A stretch of DNA of 64,000 bases from positions 371,701 to 435,700 of the forward strand of contig JADJOH010000002.1 of the NCBI GenBank assembly GCA_016713925.1, written 5' to 3'. How positions within the stretch are numbered: the first letter of the stretch is position 1; every line of letters begins with the position of its first letter. Shown in pieces: positions 561 to 61,929 of this stretch. The stretch is from Bacteroidota bacterium (GTDB lineage Bacteria; Bacteroidota; Bacteroidia; AKYH767-A; OLB10). The position numbers and the translations under genes are program-made. The notes under the pieces were generated by a model. The model was not told the DNA's origin and searched no databases. It saw only the letters and a program-made list of their open reading frames with translations.

Positions 561-3500
561 TTATTTTGCTCTTACAAATCGCAGCGTTTGCTGATCTTTC
601 ATAGCATCTGTTAAAACGAGGGTATAAATTCCGGGAGATAAATTTTGGATAGATAGAGTTGATCCATCAACAGAAAGCACACCCTGCCATATCTGTTTAC
701 CGGTAAAGTCATAAATCACCCCCTGCATATCCTCTTCTAAACCGGTAAAATAGACCTGATCTTTCACCGGATTTGGCCATAGACTTACGACATTCTTCAG
801 CTTATCATTAAAATTAACGGCTATCCACCCTGTTAGTTCCTCGGCACCATTGATGTCTACCTGTCTGAGCCGGTAATAATTTTCACCTGCAAATGGATTT
901 TCATCAATAAAATTATAGGAAGAAGTAGAGGAGGAAGTACCTACACCGGTTACACTACCCAATTGTTGCACCTCGACAAAGTCACGCGTACGCTCCACTA
1001 CAAAATGGCTGTTATCCTTTTCTTCGGCTGTTGCCCATTCGAGGCGTACATTAGTACCGGATTTTTTACCGTCAAAAAACAACCACGCAACAGGAAGAGC
1101 CGCATTCAGACTTGCAAGCGCCCAATGGGTTTGACCACCTGCGGCAGGAACTGACACCTGATAAGCAAGAGCATTTTGCCCGGGTAAGGCAGCCATCCAG
1201 GTATTGGTGGGTGAATTATAAGCATGTGCTCTGATTAATCCCGCTGAATTATAAGGGATGCCGGGTAATTCCGTTGAAATATAATTAAACGTCAGGTTCA
1301 ACACCGGATTGGAGCCGGTATTTGCCATGCGCCAGAAACGATCAACAGTAGCCGTGCGGTTATCCGGAGTCAGACCTATATGACTGGTTAAATTGTTAAC
1401 ACCCGGAGGCCATGGGAGATTATTAGCAGGAGTACGATAGGTAGAGAAAGATACAATTCCCGCATTTCCACCCGTCATCTGATACGTTAAAGGAATGTAC
1501 TGAGTAGACGAATAACCCCAGGGAAGTAAATAGGTTCCGGTGGTTGAATTAATGGTCCATACGATTCGCGCGGAATGATCCAATGCTTCACTACGTATGA
1601 AACCTCCGGTACGCTGCATGGCGGTCGGCGAAGGATTTTCAATATGCACATAGCGACCACCGTTAACCGGGTTACCTGACGCATCAGAGAGATTGAATTC
1701 ACCGGCTGTCATGATCAGGCGGGTGCGTATATACACCGCCGTTGTAAATGTAGGTAGATAGGTGGGTGCTACCCAGGTTCCTGCGGGGCCCACATGATTG
1801 ATTTCCAGAATCCCGTATTTATGCTGCGGCAAGGTAGCTATTCCCACATTGATACCCGTTATTCTCGCGTAGGTAGATGTATTGTACTCGACGATACTAT
1901 TTGCTCCGAGAAAAAAATTCATGTTTCCTGCATTGCTGATCGCCGCATTGGACGTTCCATCATAGAGACCTGTTGTTCGTGCCAGTCTGAACCTTGCATT
2001 ATCTGCAACTGTTAAACCGGAATAGGTAAATAAAGTATCTGATGTCAGTTGATGTGTACCGATGGATAAAATACCCCCGGCTTCAATCTTCAACATATCC
2101 TGTATGGCGGTATTATGCGAACTCATCTGGAAAGGACCGGAAGTCACATTCACTGTACATCCGGTTCTAATCGTTTGTTTGCATTGCTGGATATTATGAG
2201 CGAGATTTCTGAAATAAGTGATGGTGCCCGGATATTCAAAAATAATTTTTGCAAACGTGCTGCCGGTACCACTACCCGCCCGATACATAGAGGCAGAATT
2301 GGAAATAGTATACGATGGACCGTTGATGTAAATTCTTTGTTCAGAAGGAGAGTCTGTAATATCAAAATGAATGATTCCACCCGATTGTGTAAAGCTGCCG
2401 TTGACATGCATATCCACAAAATTATTTGAAGGAGAAGCGGTACCCCACTGATCGGGACCGTGCATGTAGTAGAGGCTACCTACAAGGTTTTGTGTGAAAC
2501 TGCCATTAATAACCAGGCTGGCATGTCCGCCTGCAGCTTTTAAAATAAGTGTTCCGCCGGATAAAAGCAGATTTCCGTTCACAGTAATATTCGTGGAATC
2601 AGATGTGTTTTCGCTGAACCATACTGTTCCACCGCTGATCGTAAATCCACCCATTACGGCAGTGACTTTATGCCCGCTACCTTCGTTTAAACCGCCGTTA
2701 AACATAGCCTTGGCAGCAGTAACTGTAAACGTTCCTCCGATGGTTATCGTCTCATCACCAAAAGCTTCGGAAGAATTAAAAACACATGTTGATAAGCCGG
2801 AGATACTGAGGTTACCACCTACCGAAAAATTTAATTTGGTAGTCACATTATTTCCACTAATGGCCGAGAGACCCAGCAACTTTATATTATCTGTGGCAAC
2901 CGTAAATGCTACAGTGGCATTCCCCAGGATATTGACCACAGCGGTTCCATTTACGTTATGCGCGTAACTGGCCATAAAAGTTCCGCGTGTGTAGGACAAT
3001 GAATTGATGTTAATAGTGGGGACACCGTTGTTGAGGAGCAGTGGCGCATTAATTCCATAGAAATTTCCGGCAGAAGTAAAGACACCATTAATCGTAATAT
3101 TTGCATTTCCGATGCCATCCATAATACCGTTAAATGTCCCACCTGCTGTTGTAGTCAAATTATTAATTGAAAATGTGAAATGATTAGTGCCATTAAATAT
3201 ACCTGTGAAAATTCCTGCTGCACCGATACTTCCATTTCCATTCACTAAGAGTGTTGCAGTCCCGGGCATGGATTTTTTCACCTGCAATTTTCCATTGACC
3301 GTTAAATTGCTTCCAATGGTGATACTGATGTTTGACGAAGAGCTATCGAGAAATGTCTGACAATTTGTACCGACTGTCAGGTAGCCATTAATGGTTCTGG
3401 TGGTACCCAGTCCCTGATTATTCCACCAGTTTACTCCGGGATTCCAGTTCAGATTCAGGTGACCAAAATTTGTACCGACACCATTGATCAGCGGAACTGC

Positions 3501-3935
3501 AATAGATGACCAGTTACTGATGGTAACGGTACTGCTTATACCAAAAATCTCAGTCCCGGCAAACAATGAACTTGAAGCTACGACTGTACTGTTCTGAATT
3601 AAAGTACCTCCATTGGCTACATTCAATGTTCCTGTCACCGTTAATGATCTGTTTGTGGTTGATCCGCCACCGTTCTGCAAAGTGCCGCCGCTGTTGATGG
3701 TCACATTCGCGATCGTTGTATTAATATTCACAGTGACCGTGGTTCCGACACAAACGATGATATTATCTCCTGCTGCCGGAAAAGAAGCCGCCATAACACC
3801 GCCACACCCTACCGTTGACCAGGTGGTGAGCGCGTTCCAGTTACCGGTGACACGGGTATAATAAGTGGCCGCTGAAGAAAAATTCAGGTTCAGCAACAAC
3901 AATACCATCAGGCTAAAGAATATATTCTTCTTCAA
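561..3935 (-). CDS. Large secreted Gly/Thr/Asn-rich beta-helix-like adhesin with T9SS C-terminal sorting domain
   Basis: 1124-aa ORF. N-terminal signal peptide MKKNIFFSLMVLLLLNLNFSSA. Repetitive G/T/N-rich body. C-terminus ...LSPGIYTLVLTDAMKDQQTLRFVRAK matches the Por secretion system CTD pattern. Confidence 0.7.
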   Translation of the reverse strand: MKKNIFFSLMVLLLLNLNFSSAATYYTRVTGNWNALTTWSTVGCGGVMAASFPAAGDNIIVCVGTTVTVNINTTIANVTINSGGTLQNGGGSTTNRSLTVTGTLNVANGGTLIQNSTVVASSSLFAGTEIFGISSTVTISNWSSIAVPLINGVGTNFGHLNLNWNPGVNWWNNQGLGTTRTINGYLTVGTNCQTFLDSSSSNISITIGSNLTVNGKLQVKKSMPGTATLLVNGNGSIGAAGIFTGIFNGTNHFTFSINNLTTTAGGTFNGIMDGIGNANITINGVFTSAGNFYGINAPLLLNNGVPTININSLSYTRGTFMASYAHNVNGTAVVNILGNATVAFTVATDNIKLLGLSAISGNNVTTKLNFSVGGNLSISGLSTCVFNSSEAFGDETITIGGTFTVTAAKAMFNGGLNEGSGHKVTAVMGGFTISGGTVWFSENTSDSTNITVNGNLLLSGGTLILKAAGGHASLVINGSFTQNLVGSLYYMHGPDQWGTASPSNNFVDMHVNGSFTQSGGIIHFDITDSPSEQRIYINGPSYTISNSASMYRAGSGTGSTFAKIIFEYPGTITYFRNLAHNIQQCKQTIRTGCTVNVTSGPFQMSSHNTAIQDMLKIEAGGILSIGTHQLTSDTLFTYSGLTVADNARFRLARTTGLYDGTSNAAISNAGNMNFFLGANSIVEYNTSTYARITGINVGIATLPQHKYGILEINHVGPAGTWVAPTYLPTFTTAVYIRTRLIMTAGEFNLSDASGNPVNGGRYVHIENPSPTAMQRTGGFIRSEALDHSARIVWTINSTTGTYLLPWGYSSTQYIPLTYQMTGGNAGIVSFSTYRTPANNLPWPPGVNNLTSHIGLTPDNRTATVDRFWRMANTGSNPVLNLTFNYISTELPGIPYNSAGLIRAHAYNSPTNTWMAALPGQNALAYQVSVPAAGGQTHWALASLNAALPVAWLFFDGKKSGTNVRLEWATAEEKDNSHFVVERTRDFVEVQQLGSVTGVGTSSSTSSYNFIDENPFAGENYYRLRQVDINGAEELTGWIAVNFNDKLKNVVSLWPNPVKDQVYFTGLEEDMQGVIYDFTGKQIWQGVLSVDGSTLSIQNLSPGIYTLVLTDAMKDQQTLRFVRAK

Positions 3936-5330: not shown

Positions 5331-6215
5331 TTAATGATCTAAATATTGTCTGCCGCCGGTATGAATCACGAGCACTTCACTCTTCTCTGAAAAAAAACTC
5401 TCCTCAAACAGGGCTTTAATTCCATAAAATAATCTTCCGGTATAGATCGGCTCAATGGGTATCGCATGACGCTTATTCCACTGATTTACAAACTGTTCTA
5501 TATCAGGATGGACGACCGCATATCCCCCCATCGTAAAGCGGTTTTCCAGATAAAGGGAGCCGTCAGGCAGTTCTGAGATTCCGGGATAACTAAAAATAAA
5601 ATGCTCCTGTTTAGCCTCCAGCACCTTTAACCCTATCACTTTGCTTCTGCCCATCAACCCCAGCGCGAGACCGGTAAGTGTGGCACCGGTACCCACAGCG
5701 AGGGCGATATCGGTAAACTTTTCCGGAATACATCCGGCGATGGATTTGCAGCCTTCCACACCGGCTTCATTGGAACCTCCTTCCGGAACAATGAGCACAT
5801 CTCCGAATTCTTCGTACAAGGCACTCCATTCAGTTGGATAACGGTAACGCCTATACGAATCTCTCGAAACGAAGACCAATTTCATCCCGGCGGCACGTGC
5901 CCTGCTCAGCGTAGGATTCTGCGCAGCGCTTTCTTCCCCCCGAATAATGCCAATGACCGGAATGCCCAACTGATGACCGGCATCGGCTAATGCGGCAATA
6001 TGATTGGAAAAAGCACCGCCAAAACTTAAAATAGCGCTATAATTCCCGGAATAAAAATGCTTCAGATTCTCTTTCAGTTTAAACCATTTATTTCCTCCCG
6101 TCAGTGGATGAATCGTATCCAGTCTCAAGACAGAAATCCTTCTGCTCCCCCTCCTTGTTTCGAGATGCACTTCGTCAATGGGAATGACGGCAGGCAACAT
6201 AAAAAGTGAATGCAT
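5331..6215 (-). CDS. PLP-dependent 1-aminocyclopropane-1-carboxylate deaminase / D-cysteine desulfhydrase family protein
   Basis: 294 aa. Motifs LTGGNKWFKLKENL and SFGGAFSNHIAALA are typical of this tryptophan-synthase-beta-like PLP family. Confidence 0.65.
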   Translation of the reverse strand: MHSLFMLPAVIPIDEVHLETRRGSRRISVLRLDTIHPLTGGNKWFKLKENLKHFYSGNYSAILSFGGAFSNHIAALADAGHQLGIPVIGIIRGEESAAQNPTLSRARAAGMKLVFVSRDSYRRYRYPTEWSALYEEFGDVLIVPEGGSNEAGVEGCKSIAGCIPEKFTDIALAVGTGATLTGLALGLMGRSKVIGLKVLEAKQEHFIFSYPGISELPDGSLYLENRFTMGGYAVVHPDIEQFVNQWNKRHAIPIEPIYTGRLFYGIKALFEESFFSEKSEVLVIHTGGRQYLDH

Positions 6216-6227
6216 CAGCAGAAAAAT

Positions 6228-6821
6228 CTACCGGTGCTGAGCGATGCGGACTGATTCGCCATTGAAATGATCGGTAAACGCAGCCCATTCGGTTTGCTCC
6301 GTATAAGGCAAGAGGGTAGATTTTCCGGTTGGAGAAAAAACACGCAAGCCGACTTTACCCTCAGAAGTACATTCGAGGCGGGAGATGGCCACCAACTGCT
6401 GATCCTGCACCAGGTTCCAGGATAAATCCGAAGGTTTAAAAACAAGTTCCACCGGCTTCTTCGCTTTCCTGCCACTCACTTCTGTCACTGTAAACTTATT
6501 CATGGTAGCTTCCATCCGGTAGGTCTTGCCCCGATACTGCACCACTTGCTGCTCGTATTCCCCCTCCTTCATAGAAACCGGATTGGAGCCCGACCAGAAT
6601 TCAATGACATTCAGAATCACGGCATCCACGAAACCTGCTATCGCATACACGGGAATGATACAAAGTGCCCAAAACACAATAGAGCGCACGAACTTATCCT
6701 CTATGGAACCGTTCCACTCATACACTTTTCCTATCAGCTTGAAGGATCCATAGCAACCGGATTGCAACAACATTCCCACCAAAGAGATGCTTAATATCAA
6801 TAAACGGCTAAACTTTTTCAT
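6228..6821 (-). CDS. DUF3332-like lipoprotein
   Basis: 197 aa. Lipoprotein-like N-terminus MKKFSRLLILSISLVGMLLQSGCYGSFKLIGKVYEWN resembles DUF3332 family starts. Confidence 0.5.
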   Translation of the reverse strand: MKKFSRLLILSISLVGMLLQSGCYGSFKLIGKVYEWNGSIEDKFVRSIVFWALCIIPVYAIAGFVDAVILNVIEFWSGSNPVSMKEGEYEQQVVQYRGKTYRMEATMNKFTVTEVSGRKAKKPVELVFKPSDLSWNLVQDQQLVAISRLECTSEGKVGLRVFSPTGKSTLLPYTEQTEWAAFTDHFNGESVRIAQHR

Positions 6822-6948
6822 ATGACATAACGTTATGCCTACAAAACTAATAGAATCCGGTTACAGGATTTCAACTCATCGTTGTTAATCATCCACAAGA
6901 TTTCAACAGTTTCCTGCAATAATTATCAATAGGTTTGATTCAGCAAAA

Positions 6949-7110
6949 ATGGCATTCACCGATAAATTCGACAAAGAAGATTATTACCTGACAGCGGAAG
7001 GGTATATTGTTTTTACAGAAAAATATCATTTAAAACGCGGCTATTGCTGCCAAAGCGGATGCCGCCATTGTCCGTATAAAGTAAAACCTGAACGAAAAAA
7101 AGTAAAATAA
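6949..7110 (+). CDS. Small Cys-rich protein (DUF5522-like), 53 aa; absent from the supplied ORF track because it is under 60 aa
   Basis: ATG at 6949, TAA at 7108. Translation MAFTDKFDKEDYYLTAEGYIVFTEKYHLKRGYCCQSGCRHCPYKVKPERKKVK carries the GYCCxSGCRHCPY signature. Confidence 0.45.
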   Translation: MAFTDKFDKEDYYLTAEGYIVFTEKYHLKRGYCCQSGCRHCPYKVKPERKKVK

Positions 7111-7165
7111 TTGTTTTGTCTCTGGAAATAATTTTAGCATACTAGTTTTCTTTCTAAAGTAATTT

Positions 7166-7200
7166 GGCTTCCGGCTGCGGGCTACCGGCTGCGGGCTTCT
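7166..7200. repeat. Heptanucleotide tandem array GGCTNNN (5 units)
   Basis: ggcttcc ggctgcg ggctacc ggctgcg ggcttct, in the intergenic region upstream of hutU. Confidence 0.7.
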
Positions 7201-7429
7201 TAAATAGTAGGACATGTTTAAATACTTTTTTTACGATAAATCCTAATCTATTTCTCAGTGCCCCTAAGTGAACTCTGTGCCTACGTGGTGAAAATGATAG
7301 TTTCATTCATGACCAATATCCTTTCGGTTCTTAATTTGGATTAATAGTATATCGGGTAAATTCAACGGTAGTAAAGGCAGTAAAATCGCTTTCTTTCTAT
7401 TAAATTTGCAGGATAAATAATAACCGGAT

Positions 7430-9106
7430 ATGCAGGATACAGCACAGAAACTCGATCTCTCGAAAACGAAAACGCCTACAGGTACTTCACTCTCCTGCAA
7501 AGGATGGGTGCAGGAGGCCGCTTTACGCATGTTGCACAACAATCTGGATCCGGATGTGGCGGAGCGTCCCGAAGACCTGATCGTTTATGGTGGTCGTGGA
7601 AAAGCAGCGCGTAATGTAGAAGCCTTTCACCTGATTGTAAAAGCACTGAAGGACCTGAACGATGACGAAACCCTGCTCGTTCAAAGCGGGAAACCCGTCG
7701 CCATCCTTCCCACCCATAAAGATGCGCCGAGAGTGATCATCAGCAATTCACAGCTGGTACCGAAATGGGCTACCTGGGAAGTGTTTGATGAACTCGAGAA
7801 AAAGGGATTGATGATGTACGGTCAGATGACTGCCGGCTCATGGATTTATATCGGCTCACAAGGTATTGTTCAGGGCACCTACGAAACCTTCAATGCGGTT
7901 GCGGATAAACATTTTGGCGGGTCATTAAAGGGTCGACTTTGTGTGACGGCCGGCTTAGGCGGAATGGGTGGAGCACAACCACTCGCGATTACCATGGCAG
8001 ATGGCGTTTGTCTGGCTGCGGAGGTGGAAGAATGGCGGGCGCAGAAGCGTGTAGAGACGCGCTACCTTGACTTCATTGAAAAAGATATTGATAAAGCCAT
8101 CGACCTTGCGCTGGAGTTTAAAGCTAAGGGCGAGAATAAATCTATTGGCGTGATTTGTACGGCGATTAAACTTTTGCAACGGTTGAAAGAGCGAAATATC
8201 ATTCCGGACGTGCTTACCGACCAAACATCCGCACACGACCCGCTCGTTGGTTATTTGCCCGAAGGACTTTCCGTTGAAGAAGGCAATGTACTGCGGGAGA
8301 CAAATCCGGACCGCTATATTGAAATGGCCTATGATTCGATGGCCGAGCATGTGTTGCTGATGCTGGAATTACAAAAGAAAGGCGCCATCACCTTCGACTA
8401 TGGCAATAACCTCCGTGGACGTGCACTGGAACGCGGGGTAGAAAATGCATTCGATTTCCCGGAATTTGTTCCCGCCTATATTCGTCCGCTGTTTTGTGAG
8501 GGGAAAGGACCTTTCCGCTGGGCGGCATTGAGTGGGGATCCGGAAGACATCAAAGTAACGGATGAGGCTATCCTAAAATTATTTCCGGAGGATACCGGCT
8601 TACATCGCTGGATAAAAATGGCACAGGAGCGCATCGCCTTCCAGGGATTGCCTGCCCGTATCTGCTGGATCGGACAAGGTGATCGTGAAAAGGCCGGACA
8701 ACTCTTCAATGAACTGGTACGCACCGGCAAAGTAAAAGCACCTATTGTTATCGGCAGGGATCATCTCGATACCGGATCGGTGGCTAGCCCTAACCGTGAG
8801 ACAGAAGCGATGCTGGACGGATCCGATGCCGTAGCGGATTGGCCCATATTGAATGCATTGATCAATACTGCCGGCGGAGCTTCCTGGGTAAGTCTGCATC
8901 ACGGCGGTGGCGTGGGTATGGGTTATTCCATTCATTCGGGAATGGTCATCGTTGCCGACGGAACGGAAGATGCAGCACGACGCCTGAAAAGAGTATTGCA
9001 CAATGATCCCGCGATGGGTGTTATCCGACATATGGATGCCGGTTATGATATCGCTACGGATACCGCACGCAAGCATCGCCTCGATATTCGGGAACGATTG
9101 AAGTAG
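7430..9106 (+). CDS. hutU: Urocanate hydratase
   Basis: 558 aa, the usual urocanase length, with strong similarity to urocanase throughout. A TAAATTTG (TAnnTTTG-type) box lies about 25 nt upstream. Confidence 0.85.
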
Positions 9107-10782: not shown

Positions 10783-10993
10783 ATATCACCCGTTCCTCCT
10801 TGGGCTTGGGGTATTACTACTCGCGCAAGGATGTCAGGCGGTGAAACCCTATCAGCGCGCTTACTTAAACGATCGGGCCATGGAGATCAACGGAAAACCC
10901 ATCAGGGCCTTTGAAGATTATTTCGAAAGCATCCGCGAAGGCGCCACCTTTCCGGGAGGAGAAAAAACAAGCGGGGGCTGTGGTTGCAACTGA
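10745..10993 (+). CDS. DUF4266-like small lipoprotein
   Basis: 82 aa. Lipobox-like LLLAQGC. C-terminal ...GGCGCN is typical of DUF4266. Confidence 0.5.
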   Translation: MKTNRYTRIFPRKYHPFLLGLGVLLLAQGCQAVKPYQRAYLNDRAMEINGKPIRAFEDYFESIREGATFPGGEKTSGGCGCN

Positions 10994-11511
10994 GCATGAG
11001 AAAAAAAATCATCATCGCCGGATTCATTACGCTTTCCTTCGCAGGCAGGGCGCAACAGCGTGATTCGATCTTTCGTTCCAAACCCATAGACCCTACCGAA
11101 ATCAAAGCGCTCTTCTCCTCCTACTTCCAGGATGGAACACATAGCGCAGTTACGGGTGGTTCAGGCACCGAGAAACTTAATGTGCAGGCGACTACTTTTC
11201 AACTGACACATGCGATTGGGGAAAAACTCTCGTTGAACTGGAAGGCCGGCATCGACGTCATCACTTCCGCCTCCACTGATAATATTGACTATGTGCTTTC
11301 GTCTGCGTCCAGAATTGACAGAAGAGGACATGCTAACGGGACCCTTATACGAAAAGGGGAGAATGAGCAGATGATGTCAATCGGTTCCGGCATCTCCGTC
11401 GAATCGGATTATCTGGCTGTTCCCCTTCAGTTCAGCTATGCGACGAAGAAAGACAGCAGCGGCAGACAATTACGAATAAATGTCGACGCTTCCTTTGATG
11501 ATCTTCGCTGA
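10984..11511 (+). CDS. DUF3570 family protein, N-terminal part, ending at an in-frame TGA
   Basis: Signal peptide. Same reading frame as the 11518-12228 ORF. Combined length of about 413 aa matches DUF3570. Confidence 0.5.
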   Translation: MQLSMRKKIIIAGFITLSFAGRAQQRDSIFRSKPIDPTEIKALFSSYFQDGTHSAVTGGSGTEKLNVQATTFQLTHAIGEKLSLNWKAGIDVITSASTDNIDYVLSSASRIDRRGHANGTLIRKGENEQMMSIGSGISVESDYLAVPLQFSYATKKDSSGRQLRINVDASFDDLR

Positions 11512-11517
11512 GGACGA

Positions 11518-12228
11518 TTGAATCCGGATTATTACAGAGCGGTACGATTAGTTTATCCTGCCGGGTTGCGCTACAAAGAATGGTCGACTGAATACAAACG
11601 CCAATCGTATAATCTTCAGGCCGCTTATTCCTTCATCATAAATAGACGCATGCAGATGAATGTAATGCCCATGCTGAACTATCAACGTGGATTACTCAGT
11701 ACGCCTTTTCATCGGGTATACTTCAACGACGGCGACCTTCGTGTAGAAAAATTACCGAAGGAACGGTGGAAATTCGGCATGAGCTTTCTCAACACCTGGT
11801 TTGCAGGCAAGAAAAGTATTCTGCGAAGTGAGTTCGGATTTTACTCCGATAATTTTGGTATCCAGGCCCTCTCTTTTGAAGAAGAACTCAGCTATAAGTT
11901 CACCAACCGTTTCTACGCCGGACCATTCCTCCGCCTCTACACACAAAGTGCATCGCATTATTTCAACACCATATCAGCTCATCTTCCCAACGCTGAATTC
12001 TACACCTCCGACTACGACCTTTCCGCATTCAATGCCATCAAAGCCGGAATGGAATTTTACTTCCTACCCCTTCAAAAAAAACAACGCAACTACTTCACAA
12101 AAGGCATCGGTCTGCGCCTGGCATGGTATCAACGTTCCGATGGCCTAACAGCCGTGATGGGAACATTGCTCTTTGACATCAACCAACGTGGGAGGCAAAA
12201 AAATTATCTTACACCAAAATACAATTGA
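11518..12228 (+). CDS. DUF3570 family protein, C-terminal part, in frame with the preceding ORF
   Basis: Track ORF starts at TTG. It continues the frame of 10984-11511 after a single TGA at 11509-11511. Confidence 0.45.
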   Translation: MNPDYYRAVRLVYPAGLRYKEWSTEYKRQSYNLQAAYSFIINRRMQMNVMPMLNYQRGLLSTPFHRVYFNDGDLRVEKLPKERWKFGMSFLNTWFAGKKSILRSEFGFYSDNFGIQALSFEEELSYKFTNRFYAGPFLRLYTQSASHYFNTISAHLPNAEFYTSDYDLSAFNAIKAGMEFYFLPLQKKQRNYFTKGIGLRLAWYQRSDGLTAVMGTLLFDINQRGRQKNYLTPKYN

Positions 12229-12394: not shown

Positions 12395-13924
12395 TTACAA
12401 TTTGATAGTTTTTGACGAAACACTTTCCGAATCAGTAATAAGATTGACCAGATAAACCCCATTCGCCACCGCATTCATCGGTATCTCTCCCGTCACATAC
12501 CCTCCTGCAATCACCTCCATTTTTTTCTCAAACACCAACCTCCCTTCCATATCAAACAACCGCAAACTTCCCGTTCTTCCTTTAAGTTTGGAGGCGTTGA
12601 CGTGAATCATATTCCACTCACTATTATACCAGGCTTGAAAAAACACCTCCTGCTCCGGTACATTATCATCCACCCCAACACTCAGCGTATCACAAGGACT
12701 CCCTACCCATGCACCGAGTTCATAATCGGGATTGTTGGGGAGGCCGTAATAGGAGCGGCCAGTTCCTAAATTAAAACTGAAGGGTTGAAAGTCACAGGCT
12801 GCTCCTAAGGAATCCGGATGATTAATTACACTTAAATTATTATTTATGGTAGTATAAGCGGTACTTGTATCAGGATATGGCCATGAATAATTTTCATCAA
12901 AAGCAGCTATATAAATCTTACCATCCGGTGCCAATTTCATTTGCCAGGGAGCTTGTGGAGCAACCATACTATCAATGATAACTTTGCTTTGAGAAATATT
13001 GGAAGAAAGTAAATCATACTGCACTAAATAGTATGTGTCGATTAACTGATCCAGATCCAGTATGTATAATTTAGAATCGTCACCTGAAAAGGCACACGTT
13101 GGATAAAGATGGATATAAGGTTGGCCGGGTGGTTCTTGTTCAACTGGTATTGTTGCTGTAATCATTCCGGTACACCTGTCAAAATCATATAACTCAACTA
13201 ATCCACGTCCGCTGATATTTGCAAATTTTGTTCCATCACTTGAAAAAACAAGCTGTCCAATATTCGTTGTATGATTGTTTCCGATATTTTGTACTGATGG
13301 TCCGGATATCCCCGTAGGAGAAATCAAATAAATCCGGAATTCATTGTTAGGAGTTTGTGCATTAGGTGCAACCCATTGCTGAGTAATCAACCACCAATCA
13401 CGACCATTACCATGTTTTACAGCCATTAATGCATCAAATGCAGGAAAAGTGTTAAGCACTATATTTTTCTGAATTACAAGCCCTGAATCATTATTAGCTT
13501 TATAGTTTACTTTCGAATAATATAGTCCATAACTTTCTACTGAAGTTACACCTGCCGTAAGTAAATAGATGTTTGAATCATTCCCCGGATCAGGAACAAA
13601 TAAACTCGCATGATACCATAGACCACCTTTAATTCTAATTGAATCACCTATTCGCTTACCATATTTGTTCCATATAAAACAATCAAGTGGTGCCGAATTA
13701 TTAATTAATCCAGCACTCATTAATAGTCCATTTTGATTACCAATGGATGAGCTGCCATTTCGATAGTAATATGGACCATTTCCAACTGCTGGAGCCGCAG
13801 TATTACTCCAATCTATATAAGCACTGTCTCCAAACACCCAGTAGTTGTTATTGAACTGAGCAACCACCTTCCCACACCCTACAACCGCAGTCATCAACAA
13901 CAAAGCGCAAAAGAATTTTTTCAT
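12395..13924 (-). CDS. Secreted protein with T9SS C-terminal sorting domain
   Basis: Likely start MKKFFCALLLMTAVVGCG (the track ORF extends to 13969). C-terminus ...NGVYLVNLITDSESVSSKTIKL is CTD-like. Confidence 0.6.
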   Translation of the reverse strand: MKKFFCALLLMTAVVGCGKVVAQFNNNYWVFGDSAYIDWSNTAAPAVGNGPYYYRNGSSSIGNQNGLLMSAGLINNSAPLDCFIWNKYGKRIGDSIRIKGGLWYHASLFVPDPGNDSNIYLLTAGVTSVESYGLYYSKVNYKANNDSGLVIQKNIVLNTFPAFDALMAVKHGNGRDWWLITQQWVAPNAQTPNNEFRIYLISPTGISGPSVQNIGNNHTTNIGQLVFSSDGTKFANISGRGLVELYDFDRCTGMITATIPVEQEPPGQPYIHLYPTCAFSGDDSKLYILDLDQLIDTYYLVQYDLLSSNISQSKVIIDSMVAPQAPWQMKLAPDGKIYIAAFDENYSWPYPDTSTAYTTINNNLSVINHPDSLGAACDFQPFSFNLGTGRSYYGLPNNPDYELGAWVGSPCDTLSVGVDDNVPEQEVFFQAWYNSEWNMIHVNASKLKGRTGSLRLFDMEGRLVFEKKMEVIAGGYVTGEIPMNAVANGVYLVNLITDSESVSSKTIKL

Positions 13925-14103
13925 CACAATAAAATTACGGAAAAAATTTGTAAAAAACATAGCGCTCAATAAAATTCTGGTGGGCCGCAGATTTGTTAAG
14001 ATTATTATGATTTGTTAGGAGAACTCGCCGCGCACGCCGCTTTCCCGATACTTCAGGACGTTGCCTTCCCATCGCTTAAACTAAGGTCACTTTTAGGAAG
14101 ATG

Positions 14104-16476
14104 TTACAATTTCACCAGTCGTTCGGTCACTTCAAGTTGTCCGGTAAGAACACGCACCAGATAGACACCTTTGGGGTGTTTGCTGAGATCAATGGAAATT
14201 CCTTTTCCTGCAGAGAGGACTTCCACCGAAGTATAGATCACTCTTCCCATTGCATCAAGCACAGTGATGTTCGCCCTTTCGCCATTGAGCACATCGGTAG
14301 AGATAGCAAAAACACCCTCCGAAGGATTCGGGGTAATCTTGACAAGTCCGCTTTGATAGAGAATATTGATACCGGTCACTGTAACACAACCGTTGAAAAT
14401 GCTTTTCAGGGTTTCTTCGTAATCGGCATTCACGGCCGCGTTGATGGAAGCTACACAAACGGTTGTACTTGTCAATGTACTGAAATACACTCTGACAAAG
14501 GGCATTGCTGTAAGTTGTTTGCCCAATGAAACTTCAGCAGTGTCCAGCAAAGCAATGCGTCCGGTAGCGGCATTCCATTCTATCAACGGATAAAAACCAC
14601 CCACAAGCGAAACCACAGAATCAATCACTACACCACTCATCGTAAAATCGAGGGCGAGTAAGCGGCAATCGGGATTGAGCATATTTAAATCAATATAGTT
14701 CAACGTTTGATTGACCATTCCGATTCCTAAATGCACTGTATCGTTGGTGTTGACAATGTTAAACGGAAACTCACAATGCCGATGCGTATTTTGCGTAGCT
14801 CCCGGGTGAACATGTGAACCATTTGTTTCACGAATACATCCGCTCACAAGAGCCGCATCCGTAACCGTGAGTGCATTATCTCCATTCACATCATTGCAAG
14901 GCATGACAGCATTAAGTGCAGTGATATCTACGAGGTACTGGTCGACATCAATATCATTTCTTAATGTATCCACATTCAAATCACCACTAATACGACTGCC
15001 GTTACAATTCCCCATACAATCGTTGATGGCTAATCCAAATGTATCTCCGGCACAATCAATGATCGGCTGACAATTGGGGAGGACAGTGAACGAGGGTACA
15101 TTCGCTGTATCGCGAGTGATATTGATACAAACAGCGGCTACGTTATTATCAAATCGTTGCTCCTGTCTGCCGAGTTTATCCGGATCCTGATCCCAGTTAA
15201 CACGAACAACCAATGTATAACGTCCGGCAGGAATATTAGTAACGTCCAGCCATTGACAGGCCAGTCCGGCGCCATAGATATCTGCACAGCCTGCTGAGAT
15301 ACCCATATTGCTGCAACCGTATTTCGCCGTTCCTCCGAAGCACTGGAGATCAAGTACACAAAATCCATTTTTAAATCCTGCCTGCAGTGGCACTCCCAAA
15401 CTATCGTAAATATTATACATCGCATAGCCGGCATAATGCCAGTGGCCGTGACATTGATCAAAAACAAACTGTGAATTACCGGTAGCAGGAGCACCAATAT
15501 AATAATCAGCATCACCGATATTGGCGATACGCGTACTGAAGTTAATTACATTTCTGGCACCATAACCCGACAAACACCCTTCGCCAATCAGGCAAGCATC
15601 GTTACCGTTTACAATACCCATATTGAGCGATGACAGCAATGTATTCCCATCCACAATAAGATCAGGTCCTGAATTACAATTCGGATCCCCGGGATAAATA
15701 CAACTACCATTGCTCACTGTAGCCAAAGGATTATAGTTACAAGCCGCAGGATCCAGACAACCTACGATTGGTCCGGCAAAAGCGATCTGCCATTGGATGC
15801 TATCCGTAATGCAAGATGTATCACCTCCTACCCGAACATAATATGTTTGTCCGCTTTGCAAACCGGCAGGAATGAAGGCCTGTATGCCACAAGTGCTGTC
15901 GTTGTAAAAGAGTGTACCGGCCATGTCGTTGTTCCAAATGAGTCCGGCGCAATGATCATAGATCCACAACCGGGTATCACAACTATTGGAAGGAAAGCAA
16001 GTAGAAATATTATAGGTTCCGGTTGAATCCGGTGTAAAACTATGCCAGGTACTTGCACCGTATGCCGTGTAGAGAGTATCTTCATACACGGTGAATGCAC
16101 TCCCGCAATGTGTGCCGGGAGGACAATTGAGATAACTGTACTCGTTATATGTAAATTGACCGCCGGCTGCCTGAATAACACTATTCACCGCCACTGCATA
16201 GAAGCCATTTCCAAAACTACAGCACATCCCATCTCCATAAGTATCCCGGATTTCAAAAATCAGACAAATTCCCTGAGGGACGCAGAGTGTATCTCCTACT
16301 GCACCACCTGCAGCCAGAATGGTCCCGGATAAATCCTTTAAACTCCAACTGGTTTCCCCGGGAAATTGATCCGGTTGTATGGTCACTATGACCTCACTGA
16401 ATCCGGAAGGGCATTGTGCATGGAGAGTTATTGGCTTTAAGAATAAAACCAAGGCAAGCAATAAGAGATGTTTCAT
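14104..16476 (-). CDS. T9SS-secreted lysyl-oxidase-like copper amine oxidase domain protein with Cys-rich N-terminal region and dockerin-like Ca-binding repeats
   Basis: Signal peptide MKHLLLLALVLFLKPITLHAQ. LOX catalytic-domain signatures: FDQCHGHWHY (His-rich Cu site), AGFKNGFCVLD (candidate LTQ Lys), GCADIYGAGLACQWLDVTNIPAGRYTLVVRVN (candidate LTQ Tyr) and RFDNNV. DVNGDNALTVTDAAL is dockerin-like. CTD KGVYLVRVLTGQLEVTERLVKL. Confidence 0.6.
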   Translation of the reverse strand: MKHLLLLALVLFLKPITLHAQCPSGFSEVIVTIQPDQFPGETSWSLKDLSGTILAAGGAVGDTLCVPQGICLIFEIRDTYGDGMCCSFGNGFYAVAVNSVIQAAGGQFTYNEYSYLNCPPGTHCGSAFTVYEDTLYTAYGASTWHSFTPDSTGTYNISTCFPSNSCDTRLWIYDHCAGLIWNNDMAGTLFYNDSTCGIQAFIPAGLQSGQTYYVRVGGDTSCITDSIQWQIAFAGPIVGCLDPAACNYNPLATVSNGSCIYPGDPNCNSGPDLIVDGNTLLSSLNMGIVNGNDACLIGEGCLSGYGARNVINFSTRIANIGDADYYIGAPATGNSQFVFDQCHGHWHYAGYAMYNIYDSLGVPLQAGFKNGFCVLDLQCFGGTAKYGCSNMGISAGCADIYGAGLACQWLDVTNIPAGRYTLVVRVNWDQDPDKLGRQEQRFDNNVAAVCINITRDTANVPSFTVLPNCQPIIDCAGDTFGLAINDCMGNCNGSRISGDLNVDTLRNDIDVDQYLVDITALNAVMPCNDVNGDNALTVTDAALVSGCIRETNGSHVHPGATQNTHRHCEFPFNIVNTNDTVHLGIGMVNQTLNYIDLNMLNPDCRLLALDFTMSGVVIDSVVSLVGGFYPLIEWNAATGRIALLDTAEVSLGKQLTAMPFVRVYFSTLTSTTVCVASINAAVNADYEETLKSIFNGCVTVTGINILYQSGLVKITPNPSEGVFAISTDVLNGERANITVLDAMGRVIYTSVEVLSAGKGISIDLSKHPKGVYLVRVLTGQLEVTERLVKL

Positions 16477-44088: not shown

Positions 44089-45405
44089 TTACTGTATCTT
44101 CCCATTAAACCATCCCAGAAAAGAACCACTCATCCACTTTTTATACGATAAAATTGTAAACGGAAAAATTATAAACGGAAGTCCGGGCACTTTATATCTA
44201 ACCAACGCCCCAATAATAGGTGTGACCAGGCCGGAGAGCATAAAAATCGAAACGCCGAACAGGAATGATGAAATAACAAATGTTGACATATTCTTTATCA
44301 ACACCCCCTTCATATTTATTAGCATGAACACCATCAACAACAAAATGAAAATATTCTCTGCCACCGAAAACCACATCAGGAAATTATTCGCATGCCGGGG
44401 CATAGGTAATAATAATGTCCTGCCGAAAGCACCCGGTGCTTCTGAAATCAGACTCCACCACTCCGGTTGAATCCTATTGACTTCCACCACACTTTTCGCT
44501 TGTTCTGTTTCAGCAACAAAATAAAATTCTGCCTGCTTTTGGGATACGAGGACAGGGATTGATTTCCCTGTGATAAAGGGAGCAGCAATAGAAAGTATCG
44601 TAAAATAAATCAAATAGATACCACCACTGATCAACACCGGAGGAAGGGGTTTGTATTTTGAAATTATCCAACTGAGTAGAAGCGGAATAATCAGAAAAAA
44701 AACATAAGCCTTTACTGTGATCAGAATAAGGATAGACAACACTATACTCACCCATCTGCGTAGCGAAGTACTTTTATCGGAAATAAGCCGGGAAATCTGA
44801 TACAACAATGTTCCCAAAGCAAAAACCAGAAATGCTTCCTTGATCATACCTGAAGTCCATAACATCATAGATGGCAATAAAAAGACAATCACTATCAATA
44901 AAAATGCCCTGCCTTTTATCGTGTCGTTCATTACTCTGAAAATTCCTGTCAGACCTATTGTCGCCAAAAAACACATCACTATGGCATGCGGGAAATAGGT
45001 ACCCATGGAGAACAGACGCAAAAATGCATTCAGGCGAATCATGGTCCGGCTATCATTAAAAACAAGGTCCGTATTGTACCAGTTTCGCATGGTATCGTAA
45101 TAGACCTGTAAATCGGCGGCATCACCATCAATTCCGGTCAGCATCCGGAAAAAATCATAAGGCCTGTTGAGAAATGTATCATAAATGACAGCAGAATCGT
45201 CATAATAGCGAAATATATCGGCATAGGCCCGGTCCGTATAAAACTGAGTATAAATAATATACAAGGCAAAAGCGGCAATCACTTTAATTATAAACATCAG
45301 CTGGAACACCTTTGCGGACACTTCCGGCAGCATGAATATTTTCCATTTGCCAATCAAGTAAATAGCTAAAAATATGTAGCCGAATGTGAGGAAGACTTCA
45401 AGCAT
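44089..45405 (-). CDS. Polytopic membrane protein of unknown function (intact paralog)
   Basis: 438 aa with multiple hydrophobic segments. Confidence 0.55.
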   Translation of the reverse strand: MLEVFLTFGYIFLAIYLIGKWKIFMLPEVSAKVFQLMFIIKVIAAFALYIIYTQFYTDRAYADIFRYYDDSAVIYDTFLNRPYDFFRMLTGIDGDAADLQVYYDTMRNWYNTDLVFNDSRTMIRLNAFLRLFSMGTYFPHAIVMCFLATIGLTGIFRVMNDTIKGRAFLLIVIVFLLPSMMLWTSGMIKEAFLVFALGTLLYQISRLISDKSTSLRRWVSIVLSILILITVKAYVFFLIIPLLLSWIISKYKPLPPVLISGGIYLIYFTILSIAAPFITGKSIPVLVSQKQAEFYFVAETEQAKSVVEVNRIQPEWWSLISEAPGAFGRTLLLPMPRHANNFLMWFSVAENIFILLLMVFMLINMKGVLIKNMSTFVISSFLFGVSIFMLSGLVTPIIGALVRYKVPGLPFIIFPFTILSYKKWMSGSFLGWFNGKIQ

Positions 45406-58419: not shown

Positions 58420-61400
58420 CTAGCGTAAAAAGATTAGCGGCATTGAGTAAACAATTCCGGAAGTCAGGTTCAGAGAATGACTCACGGTAACGGGTACATT
58501 TAAACGCACATCACCACCGGGTTTATCCACTATCATGCGACGTATAACAGGAGGGAACAAGAGATGACCTCTTATTTGTTGCGTTGTGTTTCCATTCAGT
58601 GTAACAAAACCGGCACCTGAATTAGCAAAAGTAATAGCCGTAGTTGAACTGTCGGTTAAAATATCACCGCCAAATGTACAGATACTATTACTTGCAGGTG
58701 ATAAAACACCGGCACCTGTTTGAATAAAAGAGGCATTGCTGTTAAAGTCATCGGGATTAGAATTTGCCAATACGAAACTACCGGTTCCACTATTTTTAAT
58801 GATGACGTGCTGATTAAAAATATTTCCACCATTTGAAGTATTTCCTCCAGCGCCGTTCTTTTCGACACGGGCTGTTGAATTAAAAACTGCACCGTGCAAA
58901 TACACTTGAGGAAAACTGAAGTCAACCGCTCCATTAAAAGTTGAATTTAAACTTAAATACAGCGCCGCCGTTCCGCTCGTCATGGCGAGTGATTGAGGAG
59001 TATTTCCTACTTGAGTAAATCTTCTCAAATTCAACTCACCTCCCGTATAATTCCCTGCTCCGATTAATATCCTTTTCCCATCTGCCAGTTGAGAGGAACC
59101 ATTGCCACCGCCGAAACGGATGCCTGCTGAGCCTGTACTATTTAGAATCAGATCCGCGTTGAACTCGGTTACACCTCCATTGTATCCCACATGAATTAAT
59201 CCTGATCCTGCGTTGGTAAATTCAACGACATCATTAAAAACATCTCTGGTGGAATTCGCCAACAAGAGATATCCGGTTCCGGAATTCATAAAAGAAGAAG
59301 AAGCATTAAAAATATTATTCCCATTACCGGCATCGTTTGCTGCCCCGGTTTTAGTGACAGAAATTGTTCCATTAAAAGTCGCACCATTAAAACAGATACC
59401 TCCACTGTTTATGGAAACATCTCCATTCAAAACCAAAGCAGGTCCCAGATTAAGTATGGCCCCTGTCCCCAGTGTAAAGGAAAGAGGGTTGGCACCCGTC
59501 TGTGTGAAGCGGGAAAGGTTTAATGAACCGGAATTGAAGCCCGATGTTCCCACAATAAATGTTTTACCTGTGGCCAACGAAGATGTACCTGTGCTCGCAC
59601 CAAACCGTATGCTTCCGTTACTTGTAGAGGAAACTATAATATTTTCATTAAACTCTGTATTAGTGCCTCTGTGTGCTAAATAAATTATTCCACTTGAATT
59701 TGTCGTTGCTGAAAGAACTCCATTATAAATATCTCTCACTGAATTAGAAAAAACCATATAGCCCGTACCATTATTCACGATAGAAAGAGAATCGCTAAAA
59801 ACGTTATTTCCGTTTCCGGTATTATTTCCTGCCCCTGTTTTTAACAAACTCACTTTTCCACCAAATGTACCACCGTTCATACACACTCCTCCGGCTTCCA
59901 CATTTAAAGGACAAGCCATCTGAGCTGCCGGACCAATGGTTACAGTAGCATTTGGTCCGGTAGAAATAGTTTGAGGAATTGTTGCTGACATGGTTACAGC
60001 ACCTAACATCAGATCTCCGCTCACAAAACCTGCATTCCCTGCTAATATGGATTTTCCATCTGCCAAAATAGCCGTTCCATTGCCTGTGCTGATTCGAACT
60101 CCACCTCCACCACCTGAGCTGTTGAGGAAAACATTTTCGTTAAAGAGTGTATTCGTTCCCTTATGCGCCACATAAATGGTACCTGTACCATTACTGCTAA
60201 AAGTAGCCGGAGCATTAAAAATATCTCTTGTACTATTCGACATGACCATATAGCCTGTGCCATTGTTAATCACGTGTACGGAATCATTGTAGGTAGTATT
60301 GCCACTGCCATTATCATTCGAGCTTCCTGTCTTTACTGCTGTTAACTTCCCGTTGAAAGTACAACCGGATAAACACATTCCACCACTTGTTACAGTTACA
60401 TCATCTGCAAAGGAGGTAGAAGGTCCTAGTGTAAGCGTAACCGCATTACCCAAACTTAAATCAAAGTTTCCGGCCGGAAAAGCAATACCGCCCAATTGTA
60501 AACTTCCGCTTTCAAATCCCGCCCCACCTACTCTGATGGATTTACCCGCTGCCAGCATTGAAGTACCTGCAGCATTACCAAAACGAATGCTTCCTGTAGA
60601 AGTACTACTTACATTCACATGATCATTGAACTGAGTATTGACACCGTTATGTGCGACATAAAGGACTCCGGTACCAGTACTGTTAAATGTCACTTCTCCA
60701 TTGAAAATATCTCGGGTAGAATTGGAAAAAGACATGAATCCTGTTCCCTCGTTGGTTATCACGGTGGTACCATTGTAGGTATTATTCCCTGAACCGTGCG
60801 TGTTGGCAGCTCCGTTCTTAGTGATATTTACATCGCCATTAAACACAACCCCGTTCAGACTAACGCCCGGACTTACCGCTATAAAATCAGATGGAAAAGT
60901 AGTTGCAGGTCCCAATGTTAAAACAGCACTTCCGTTTAATGTAAGTGACTGATCTGAACTACCGGCTATGGACATACGTGATAATTGAAGTGTTCCGCCG
61001 GAAAACCCGGTATTGCCAATAGTTAATTGTTTATCTGCTGCCAGTATGGACGTACCATTGCTTCCTCCAATTCTAATTCCTCCCCCGGTACTGTTAAAAA
61101 TCAGATTCTCATTAAACTGTGTATTTGTTCCATTATAGGCGATGTAGAGGACTCCGGCGCCCGTGCTATTTAAAGTTAAAGGAGCATTATAAATATCGCG
61201 GGTAGAATTCGAAAAAATCAAGTACCCCGTTCCTGAATTGGTAATAAAAGTGGAATCATTGAAAGTATTATTCCCTGAAGCAACATCATTGCTTGCACCT
61301 GTTTTAGTCAACCGGGTGATCCCATTAAATGTAGTATTTCTTACAGTCACAATTCCTGAATTCACTTCAATATCCGTATGAATAGTCGGTCCGGCTGAAC

Positions 61401-61929
61401 CGCTTCCGAATACGGTGGAACTGCCATTGGTCACCATGTTGCCAGTACCGGTTGAAGTGGCAATAGTGCCACCGTTGAACGTTGCGTTTCCATTAACAAC
61501 CAGGTTTCCTCCTCTTAGTTCTAAAGTGGAAGTCGTATTCATCACAAAACTACCTGCTAATGTCAATGAAAATCCATTCATATCTAACTGTGAACCGGAA
61601 TTCATTGTTATATCTGATGTATTTACGGCATTGTCTAAAACAGGATATCTGCTCAAGGAGGAAGGGATCGTGATTTGATCATTAATTGTAGGCAATCCCG
61701 AAGGCGTCCAGTTGTTTGAGTTGGACCATAAACTATCAGAAGAGCCATTCCAGGTATAACTGATTCCGGCAACAGCGGTGGTATTGACACCCAAATTCCA
61801 ATAAATCAATCCTGCAACAAAGGCAAAAACAGAGAAAATACCTCCTGCAATCAGATAGCGTTGCACGAGTTTAGTCCTTTGTTGTTGTTTGATTTTCAAC
61901 CTTTTAACTTTAGTTTTAGCTCTTTCCAT
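58420..61929 (-). CDS. Very large repetitive Gly/Thr/Asn/Ser-rich beta-helix-like adhesin (N-terminal portion; signal anchor)
   Basis: 1169 aa. N-terminal TM/signal anchor. Six or more internal repeats of about 160 aa (e.g. GNNTFNDSTFITNSGTGYLIFSNSTRDIYNAP...). Confidence 0.6.
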   Translation of the reverse strand: MERAKTKVKRLKIKQQQRTKLVQRYLIAGGIFSVFAFVAGLIYWNLGVNTTAVAGISYTWNGSSDSLWSNSNNWTPSGLPTINDQITIPSSLSRYPVLDNAVNTSDITMNSGSQLDMNGFSLTLAGSFVMNTTSTLELRGGNLVVNGNATFNGGTIATSTGTGNMVTNGSSTVFGSGSAGPTIHTDIEVNSGIVTVRNTTFNGITRLTKTGASNDVASGNNTFNDSTFITNSGTGYLIFSNSTRDIYNAPLTLNSTGAGVLYIAYNGTNTQFNENLIFNSTGGGIRIGGSNGTSILAADKQLTIGNTGFSGGTLQLSRMSIAGSSDQSLTLNGSAVLTLGPATTFPSDFIAVSPGVSLNGVVFNGDVNITKNGAANTHGSGNNTYNGTTVITNEGTGFMSFSNSTRDIFNGEVTFNSTGTGVLYVAHNGVNTQFNDHVNVSSTSTGSIRFGNAAGTSMLAAGKSIRVGGAGFESGSLQLGGIAFPAGNFDLSLGNAVTLTLGPSTSFADDVTVTSGGMCLSGCTFNGKLTAVKTGSSNDNGSGNTTYNDSVHVINNGTGYMVMSNSTRDIFNAPATFSSNGTGTIYVAHKGTNTLFNENVFLNSSGGGGGVRISTGNGTAILADGKSILAGNAGFVSGDLMLGAVTMSATIPQTISTGPNATVTIGPAAQMACPLNVEAGGVCMNGGTFGGKVSLLKTGAGNNTGNGNNVFSDSLSIVNNGTGYMVFSNSVRDIYNGVLSATTNSSGIIYLAHRGTNTEFNENIIVSSTSNGSIRFGASTGTSSLATGKTFIVGTSGFNSGSLNLSRFTQTGANPLSFTLGTGAILNLGPALVLNGDVSINSGGICFNGATFNGTISVTKTGAANDAGNGNNIFNASSSFMNSGTGYLLLANSTRDVFNDVVEFTNAGSGLIHVGYNGGVTEFNADLILNSTGSAGIRFGGGNGSSQLADGKRILIGAGNYTGGELNLRRFTQVGNTPQSLAMTSGTAALYLSLNSTFNGAVDFSFPQVYLHGAVFNSTARVEKNGAGGNTSNGGNIFNQHVIIKNSGTGSFVLANSNPDDFNSNASFIQTGAGVLSPASNSICTFGGDILTDSSTTAITFANSGAGFVTLNGNTTQQIRGHLLFPPVIRRMIVDKPGGDVRLNVPVTVSHSLNLTSGIVYSMPLIFLR

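Follow-up and report, generated by a model that had tools for sequence, protein, structure and literature searches.

A complete gene on the minus strand of the analyzed window, a 64,000-nucleotide stretch from a Bacteroidota bacterium (contig JADJOH010000002.1, positions 371,701 to 435,700), encodes a secreted, multi-domain lysyl oxidase (LOX) family protein of 790 amino acids (aa), which is very likely a copper-dependent amine (lysyl) oxidase that would act extracellularly by means of a lysine tyrosylquinone (LTQ) cofactor. The gene occupies positions 14104..16476, with its stop codon at 14104–14106; these limits, given in a preliminary description of the window, are confirmed by the list of open reading frames (ORFs) and by full-length homologues. 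The domain identities, the conservation of the catalytic residues, the fold, and the export signals of the protein are established. An exact-sequence look-up of the 790-aa protein returned no record.

The LOX catalytic domain comprises aa 271–465 (15082..15666, minus strand), as delimited by the Pfam family PF01186 (Lysyl_oxidase) and by alignment with human LOXL2 (PDB 5ZE3). The PF01186 match itself spans aa 305–458 and scores 100.3 bits (E=1.5e-28) against a cut-off of 20.4, and the same family is matched by 29/29 relatives. A phmmer search of the PDB sequences retrieved LOXL2 at E=1.5e-18, while a profile built from the 29 family members matched it at E=3.7e-35 over an alignment that starts at the "PDL" motif and stops at "NN", covering LOXL2 residues 536–729. 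Since the Pfam, phmmer, and family-profile scores are all far beyond chance, the similarity is real, and the LOX catalytic domain proposed in the preliminary description is borne out. The interval assigned to it there (15120–15600) captures a genuine core, aa ~293–452, of a domain that is larger as a whole. Moreover, the LOX catalytic-domain fold is present in the AlphaFold2 model of the protein.

In LOXL2, H626, H628, and H630 bind the metal together with Tyr689 (Zhang et al. 2018, PMC5899467), and the formation of LTQ from Lys653 and Tyr689 has been shown experimentally (PMC5899467). All of these residues have counterparts in the window protein (LOXL2 numbering is the chain index + 317, verified on Cys625; conservation is counted in an alignment of 117 homologues of 40–96% identity). 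The putative copper-binding HxHxH motif, H343/H345/H347 (15436..15450, minus), aligns with H626/H628/H630; the LTQ precursor lysine, K369 (15370..15372, minus), aligns with K653; and the LTQ precursor tyrosine, Y401 (15274..15276, minus), which would be the fourth metal ligand in the precursor state, aligns with Y689. Each of them is invariant (117/117). The four catalytic-domain motifs quoted in the preliminary description were all found, namely FDQCHGHWHY at aa 339–348, AGFKNGFCVLDLQC at aa 366–379, GCADIYGAGLACQWLDVTNIPAGRYTLVVRVN at aa 396–427, and RFDNNV at aa 441–446.

The likeness extends to the disulfide framework of the domain. The LOXL2 disulfides include 573–625, 579–695, 657–673, and 663–685 (PMC5899467). 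In the phmmer alignment, C342, C373, C379, C388, C397, and C407 pair with LOXL2 C625, C657, C663, C673, C685, and C695, respectively, to which the family-profile alignment adds C295 and C301, the equivalents of C573 and C579. These eight cysteines, invariant among the homologues, represent four of the five catalytic-domain disulfides of LOXL2; the fifth (C732–C746) plausibly corresponds to the invariant C450–C469, which lies beyond the aligned block. The calcium ligands of LOXL2 are D549, L550, E722, D724, N727, and N728 (PMC5899467). D272–L273 align with D549–L550, and D272, E439, N444, and N445 are invariant, with L273 retained in 116/117 sequences; the D724 position is not conserved.

The catalytic domain ranks among the best-conserved parts of the protein in the 117-homologue alignment. 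In comparison with an orthologue of 85% identity (L001), the proportion of nonsynonymous differences (pN) is 0.10 over the whole gene and that of synonymous differences (pS) is 0.72, i.e., synonymous sites are saturated, whereas pN in the catalytic domain is 0.048, the lowest of the compared regions. This low pN against a saturated pS indicates strong purifying selection. L001 served as the reference because the copy of the closest relative, L015, is frameshifted.

The protein carries export signals at both ends. A Sec signal peptide, aa 1–20 (MKHLLLLALVLFLKPITLHA; 16417..16476, minus), is recognized by its hydrophobic N-terminus and by the family consensus; it is modeled as a helix over residues 2–12, with a low predicted local distance difference test (pLDDT) score at 13–20. 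The sequence ends in ..LHA|QC and the family consensus in "..AQC", from which we infer a predicted cleavage site that would leave Gln21 as the mature N-terminus. At the other end, aa 713–790 (14107..14340, minus) form a C-terminal sorting domain (CTD) of type A of a type IX secretion system (T9SS), as the preliminary description had claimed without naming the type: PF18962 (Por_Secre_tail) matches aa 716–787 at 42.6 bits, exceeding its cut-off of 27; with TIGR04183, the NCBIfam model of T9SS type A sorting domains, the protein reaches 41.9 bits (cut-off 23); and the predicted fold is the Ig-like β-sandwich of solved T9SS cargo CTDs. Furthermore, 34/35 cysteines of the whole protein are ≥94% conserved, which implies ~17 disulfides and extracytoplasmic folding.

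The full-length AlphaFold2 model, computed from the 117-sequence alignment, has a mean pLDDT of 88.6 and a predicted template modeling (pTM) score of 0.60, and it resolves a series of accessory modules around the catalytic domain. The preliminary description had placed a "Cys-rich N-terminal module" ahead of it, a label that needs to be replaced, as this region consists of two β-sandwiches of the PPC/collagen-binding-domain (CBD) fold followed by a four-cysteine knot. A separate model of aa 21–270 reached a pLDDT of 92.1, and its top Foldseek match is the tandem s3a–s3b pair of collagen-binding domains of the clostridial collagenase ColG (E=7.6e-6); the model also matches a PPC domain at a TM score of 0.74, and the N-terminal modules thus display the PPC/CBD β-sandwich fold in the predicted structure. 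The first sandwich, N1 (aa 21–117; 16126..16416, minus), is modeled with high confidence and bears the motif ETSW...DxYGDGxCC. The second, N2 (aa 118–235; 15772..16125, minus), is assigned to the PPC/clostridial CBD fold on the basis of the model and a weak match to PPC (PF04151), which at 17.0 bits (E=0.012) is below the threshold of 25.9. The knot or linker that follows (aa 236–270; 15667..15771, minus; GCxDPxACNYNPLATVSxxxCIYPGDPxC) is defined by the conservation of its cysteines C240, C246, C259, and C267, which are invariant in the 117 sequences.

A Pfam search with N1 (PDxYPxETSW ... DxYGDGxCC) gave no match, not even at E≤10. Other T9SS cargo ORFs, from Flavobacteriales, Saprospiraceae, and Marinimicrobia (L028–L054), carry copies of it with 34–45% identity; most of these proteins are proteases, and the fusion partners of N1 in this set include M4, M12B, M23, M43, S8, and trypsin-like peptidases, an endonuclease I with MAM, and Omp28/CARDB proteins. 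This distribution was derived from tblastn-confirmed loci together with Pfam; a word-index search with the 98-aa N1 alone gave one match. N1 has the appearance of a promiscuous accessory domain without a name.

Downstream of the catalytic domain, a second Cys-rich linker (aa 466–497; 14986..15081, minus), with C469, C475, C487, and C491 all invariant, leads to a dockerin-like module (aa 498–552; 14821..14985, minus) made of two 12-residue calcium-type loops, each followed by a helix. Loop 1 is DLNVDTLRNDID (aa 499–510) and loop 2 is DVNGDNALTVTD (aa 529–540), the latter lying within the dockerin-like motif DVNGDNALTVTDAAL of the preliminary description, which is located at aa 529–543. Both loops have the canonical D-x-N-x-D...D spacing; D499, D510, D529, and D540, at loop positions 1 and 12, are invariant, residues 501/503/531/533 are N/D/S, and the modeled helices run over aa 508–519 and 538–551. 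PF00404 scores 16.8 bits on this protein, below its cut-off of 22.9; 7/29 relatives match it at E≤0.01 (best E=5.8e-7), and several PDB dockerins align in register at family-profile positions 495–556 (E=0.015–1.6). The label "dockerin-like" is adopted because of the canonical loops, the helices after them, the PF00404 matches in relatives, and the alignment with PDB dockerins, and the module is not called a dockerin member because the score of this protein is sub-threshold; the repeats proposed earlier therefore stand at the family level, while taken alone they fall below the Pfam cut-off.

The next segment is a His-rich spacer (aa 553–567, GSHVHPGATQNTHRH, HxH...HxH; 14776..14820, minus), identified by conservation and modeled with lower confidence. 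Its histidines H555, H557, H565, and H567 each occur in 84–93/117 relatives, the loop being deleted in some sub-clades, and it could be a second metal site, perhaps for copper. Between the spacer and the sorting domain, aa 568–705 (14362..14775, minus) adopt a cohesin-fold β-sandwich, a nine-stranded jelly roll in the predicted model. No Pfam or PDB sequence match revealed a cohesin signature in aa 568–705. This module was absent from the domains listed in the preliminary description.

The family to which the protein belongs is large: the 790-aa query matches over 925 protein clusters (90% identity), of which the best 120 are covered over essentially the whole length at about 40% identity and above, and nearly all are ~780–810 aa long with both PF01186 and PF18962. 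Homologues covering the query at 100% extend down to ~43% identity. The source names include "lysyl oxidase family protein [Chitinophagales bacterium]" and "Lysyl oxidase/Secretion system C-terminal sorting domain", and the NCBI names for relatives are already "lysyl oxidase family protein". In one-genome-per-species data, full-length relatives are present in metagenome-assembled genomes (MAGs) labeled Bacteroidia, Sphingobacteriales, Chitinophagales, Saprospirales, and Flavobacteriales, and the cultured Lewinella cohaerens DSM 23179 also carries one. The closest relative, at 92% identity, is that of the MAG Skiv_18-Q3-R9-52_BATAC.354 (L015).

Searched alone, the catalytic domain has 3164 matches at E≤1e-3, of which 319 reach E≤1e-30, among 1.84 billion representatives clustered at 50% identity; the matched proteins are 338–2284 aa long, and the position of the domain within them varies. 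Some representatives contain two or three separate LOX stretches per protein, and others are up to ~2300 aa long (P0143, P0233, P0135, P0181, P0251, and P0265); these multiple stretches and varied sizes indicate that the LOX domain has been shuffled into many architectures in the lineage. The assertion that bacterial LOX homologues are rare and patchy accordingly holds for bacteria overall and fails for this lineage, in which more than 900 clusters share the whole architecture: LOX is uncommon overall yet well established and architecturally diverse in this Bacteroidota lineage. Bacteroidetes were already among the LOX-bearing phyla in a 2015 survey (Grau-Bove et al. 2015, PMC4448552); beyond that survey, no paper on T9SS-exported or multi-domain Bacteroidota LOX was found in the searched literature.

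The gene is chromosomal and lies amid housekeeping genes. On one flank are urocanase, ApbE, DUF3570, and a T9SS-like protein of 524 aa; on the other are the divergently transcribed uvrD/pcrA, DUF4290, and murA. This position is kept in ~13 related Bacteroidota MAGs, where the gene is flanked on opposite sides by uvrD and by urocanase, the latter with or without ApbE/DUF3570; there, urocanase is ~90–94% identical, while LOX is just 53–72% identical. No paralogue of LOX and no further copy of any of its modules occurs elsewhere in the window, and its guanine-cytosine (GC) content of 0.45 is near the window range of 0.36–0.47.

Compared with L015, nucleotide identity is 91–98% in the flanking genes, whereas the LOX gene is a mosaic, mostly of 80–87%, with N1 at 80%, the catalytic domain at 81.5%, and the cohesin-fold module at 94%; the downstream T9SS-like 524-aa gene is at 73%. 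This pattern, over window positions 12395–16476, suggests recombination or allele exchange at a surface-protein locus. The L015 orthologue (6001–8369) is frameshifted after ~aa 226, frame 0 encoding 226 aa and frame 2 encoding 658 aa. The frameshift may be an assembly error and not a pseudogene, because the contig name ("tig...") suggests a long-read assembly.

Based on these features, a route from export to catalysis may be proposed. The protein would leave the cytoplasm by Sec export through its signal peptide and would fold in the periplasm around ~17 disulfide bonds, whereupon the T9SS would recognize the CTD and move the protein over the outer membrane; the CTD would be cleaved and the enzyme anchored on the surface or released. 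CTD removal followed by anchoring or release is established T9SS biology. Copper bound to H343/H345/H347 would then drive the self-oxidation of Y401 and its cross-linking to K369 to generate LTQ, and the mature enzyme would turn primary amines, most plausibly the lysine side chains of extracellular proteins or peptides, into aldehydes, giving off NH3 and H2O2. The two N-terminal β-sandwiches probably retain the enzyme on a polymeric target, a targeting role that is proposed because their fold is that of the collagen-binding domains of clostridial collagenases and because N1 is common to secreted proteases. The dockerin-like and cohesin-fold pair probably serves docking, i.e., self-association or attachment to other surface proteins.

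The formation of LTQ, the activity of the enzyme, its substrate, and what the accessory modules do are all inferred, and several observations weigh against this reading as a whole. The position of the LOXL2 calcium ligand D724 is R441 here and is variable in the family, with D443 nearby. The PPC, dockerin, and cohesin assignments are sub-threshold in Pfam for this protein or rest on the fold. A conserved operon partner hinting at a substrate was searched for among the relatives and none was found, because the neighbors of the more distant family members are unrelated (e.g., P0001 and P0060). Finally, the frameshift in L015, if real, would make the LOX gene dispensable.

The reading of the protein as an extracellular lysyl oxidase has to be weighed against other explanations, of which the main one accepts the enzyme and questions its job. 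It is possible, although we consider it doubtful, that the enzyme oxidizes free small amines (lysine, cadaverine, polyamines, or cationic antibiotics) with no protein modification or cross-linking, to the benefit of the cell through ammonia as a nitrogen source, H2O2 against competitors, or detoxification. The sole characterized prokaryotic LOX, HTU-LOX of Haloterrigena turkmenica, speaks for such a role: refolded with Cu2+, it is an active, copper-dependent amine oxidase sensitive to β-aminopropionitrile (PMC6452851), and its specificity is relaxed, lysine polymers, small amines, aminoglycosides, and polymyxin all being oxidized (PMC6452851). This role is also in keeping with the lack, in linkage with the LOX gene, of any gene for a collagen-like protein or another candidate substrate. 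However, a polymeric or surface-bound target is favored by the conserved modules of binding type, namely the two PPC/CBD-fold domains, of which N1 also occurs in secreted proteases, and the dockerin-like and cohesin-fold pair, and the LOXL2 active site is surface-exposed, which suits peptidyl lysine (PMC5899467). Taken together, the accessory modules lean toward a polymeric or surface-bound target. An unlikely reading of the same N-terminal modules takes the first 250 residues as an autoinhibitory pro-region that is cut off for activation, like the propeptide of animal LOX or the stretch that inhibits HTU-LOX. According to Pestov et al., HTU-LOX gains activity when it is truncated at the N-terminus, and LOX domains usually have an autoinhibitory sequence in front of them; the PPC fold of clostridial collagenases, too, sits in a "pre-peptidase" region. 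By contrast, in many unrelated T9SS enzymes N1 lies in the middle or on the C-terminal side, a placement more in line with an accessory or binding module than with a propeptide specific to LOX, and both N-terminal modules are predicted to be well-folded, disulfide-bonded domains.

Two further explanations concern whether the domain is an enzyme at all and where it came from. It is very improbable that the LOX domain is catalytically dead and purely structural or adhesive; the apparently frameshifted L015 copy could be cited in favor of this idea, which is countered by the invariance of all copper and LTQ residues across the homologues and by the low pN and high conservation of the catalytic domain, and it was rejected on conservation grounds. 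Recent horizontal acquisition from an animal, or contaminating eukaryotic DNA, is scarcely credible. The strong block-by-block similarity to animal LOX/LOXL2 is what would suggest it, but the identity to LOXL2 is no more than 24%, the gene keeps its chromosomal place between uvrD and urocanase in the ~13 related MAGs, its GC content resembles that of the window, the LOX domain is joined to modules confined to bacteria, the T9SS CTD among them, and the family has many members that diverged deeply; contamination with animal DNA and a recent transfer were both rejected on grounds of synteny and conservation.

An extension of the extracellular lysyl oxidase reading, which is speculative and for which the chances are slim, holds that the family might be the bacterial equivalent of the enzymes that cross-link an extracellular matrix: a surface-displayed LOX, held by its CBD-like modules on a protein polymer and self-assembled by dockerin/cohesin contacts, would harden extracellular proteins or create allysine cross-links in them. 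If this were true, its targets could be, for instance, floc or biofilm matrix, sheath, or prey proteins, and this LOX would be the first among prokaryotes to have an apparatus dedicated to substrate targeting and self-assembly.

Other features of the window were noted in passing. Two further ORFs match the T9SS sorting-domain model, that at 561–3935 above and that at 12395–13969 below the Pfam cut-off. The former (minus strand) encodes a 1124-aa predicted T9SS cargo in which the CTD is the sole Pfam match at E≤1e-5; the latter (minus strand), directly downstream of the LOX gene, encodes the 524-aa protein with a weak Por_Secre_tail match and no other Pfam domain, whose counterpart among the related MAGs is found just in L015, at 69% identity. 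No T9SS machinery component was identified among the window ORFs scanned. An in-frame TGA at 11509–11511 (..FDDLR*GRLNPDYY..) interrupts the DUF3570 gene (10984–12228, plus) and leaves two ORFs in the same frame; at this codon, five related MAGs (L004, L007, L008, L015, and L017) have TGG (Trp) in an uninterrupted frame. The window thus carries either a nonsense mutation or a sequencing error here. At E≤1e-5, Pfam gave nothing for two large ORFs, those at 58420–61929 (minus, 1169 aa) and 44089–45405 (minus, 438 aa), and an Rfam scan of the window gave no match. The scan for sigma-70 promoters and terminators was uninformative; Bacteroidota use other promoter motifs.

As a genome annotation, the finding is ordinary and would not surprise a specialist. 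The presence of LOX in Bacteroidetes and the family annotation are already known, and standard pipelines label such proteins lysyl oxidase; within the searched literature, what goes beyond published description is the fixed multi-module architecture that retains an animal-type catalytic framework. In animals, lysyl oxidases have a central part in connective tissue, fibrosis, and cancer, and to our knowledge no active-state lysyl oxidase structure exists. The family described here keeps the animal-type framework (His triad, LTQ pair, disulfides, and most of the calcium site) and is abundant, diverse, and naturally secreted. It could serve as a tractable model of LTQ formation and as a source of protein-modifying enzymes, while its accessory modules suggest testable ideas on the targets of bacterial LOX.

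Among known systems, animal LOX/LOXL1–4, with human LOXL2 as the reference, share ~24% identity with this protein. Unlike them, it is devoid of scavenger receptor cysteine-rich (SRCR) domains and of a LOX-type propeptide and instead has PPC/CBD-fold, dockerin-like, cohesin-fold, and T9SS modules; the calcium ligand D724 is not kept, and collagen or elastin substrates cannot be assumed. It belongs to the same Pfam family, PF01186, as the prokaryotic LOX homologues, nearly all of which are simple, having no module besides the LOX domain except, in some, a signal peptide or a transmembrane segment (Grau-Bove et al. 2015, PMC4448552). In contrast to these simple proteins, the present family is a fixed seven-module, ~800-aa T9SS cargo. 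With HTU-LOX as the precedent, prokaryotic homologues of this kind can have copper-dependent, β-aminopropionitrile-sensitive amine oxidase activity, which favors reading the present protein as an active enzyme. LodA-like lysine ε-oxidases with a cysteine tryptophylquinone (CTQ) cofactor and topaquinone (TPQ) copper amine oxidases (PF01179) perform the same chemistry, in which a quinone oxidizes an amine to an aldehyde with release of NH3 and H2O2. The LodA-like CTQ oxidases, of which LodA-type enzymes are secreted bacterial antimicrobials, are unrelated to LOX in fold and cofactor. The TPQ enzymes are likewise unrelated to LOX in fold and cofactor (PMC5899467), and a Pfam search of this protein gave no match to the TPQ copper amine oxidase or LodA-like families.

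With T9SS type A cargo such as gingipains, mirolase, NucA, and secreted proteases, the protein shares the Sec signal peptide, Por_Secre_tail, and modular β-sandwich accessory domains, and the N1 module is common to it and to M4, M12B, M23, M43, S8, and trypsin-like T9SS proteases as well as endonuclease I; in contrast to the hydrolases among this cargo, its catalytic module is an oxidase. The CBDs of clostridial collagenases (ColG s3a/s3b and ColH s3, of the PPC superfamily) are 10–13% identical to the N-terminal modules, a likeness of fold, and PPC-fold domains are frequent in secreted enzymes without a collagen link. Finally, in comparison with cohesin–dockerin systems, cellulosomal and non-cellulosomal, the dockerin-like and cohesin-fold modules here belong to a single polypeptide, that of a non-cellulolytic enzyme.

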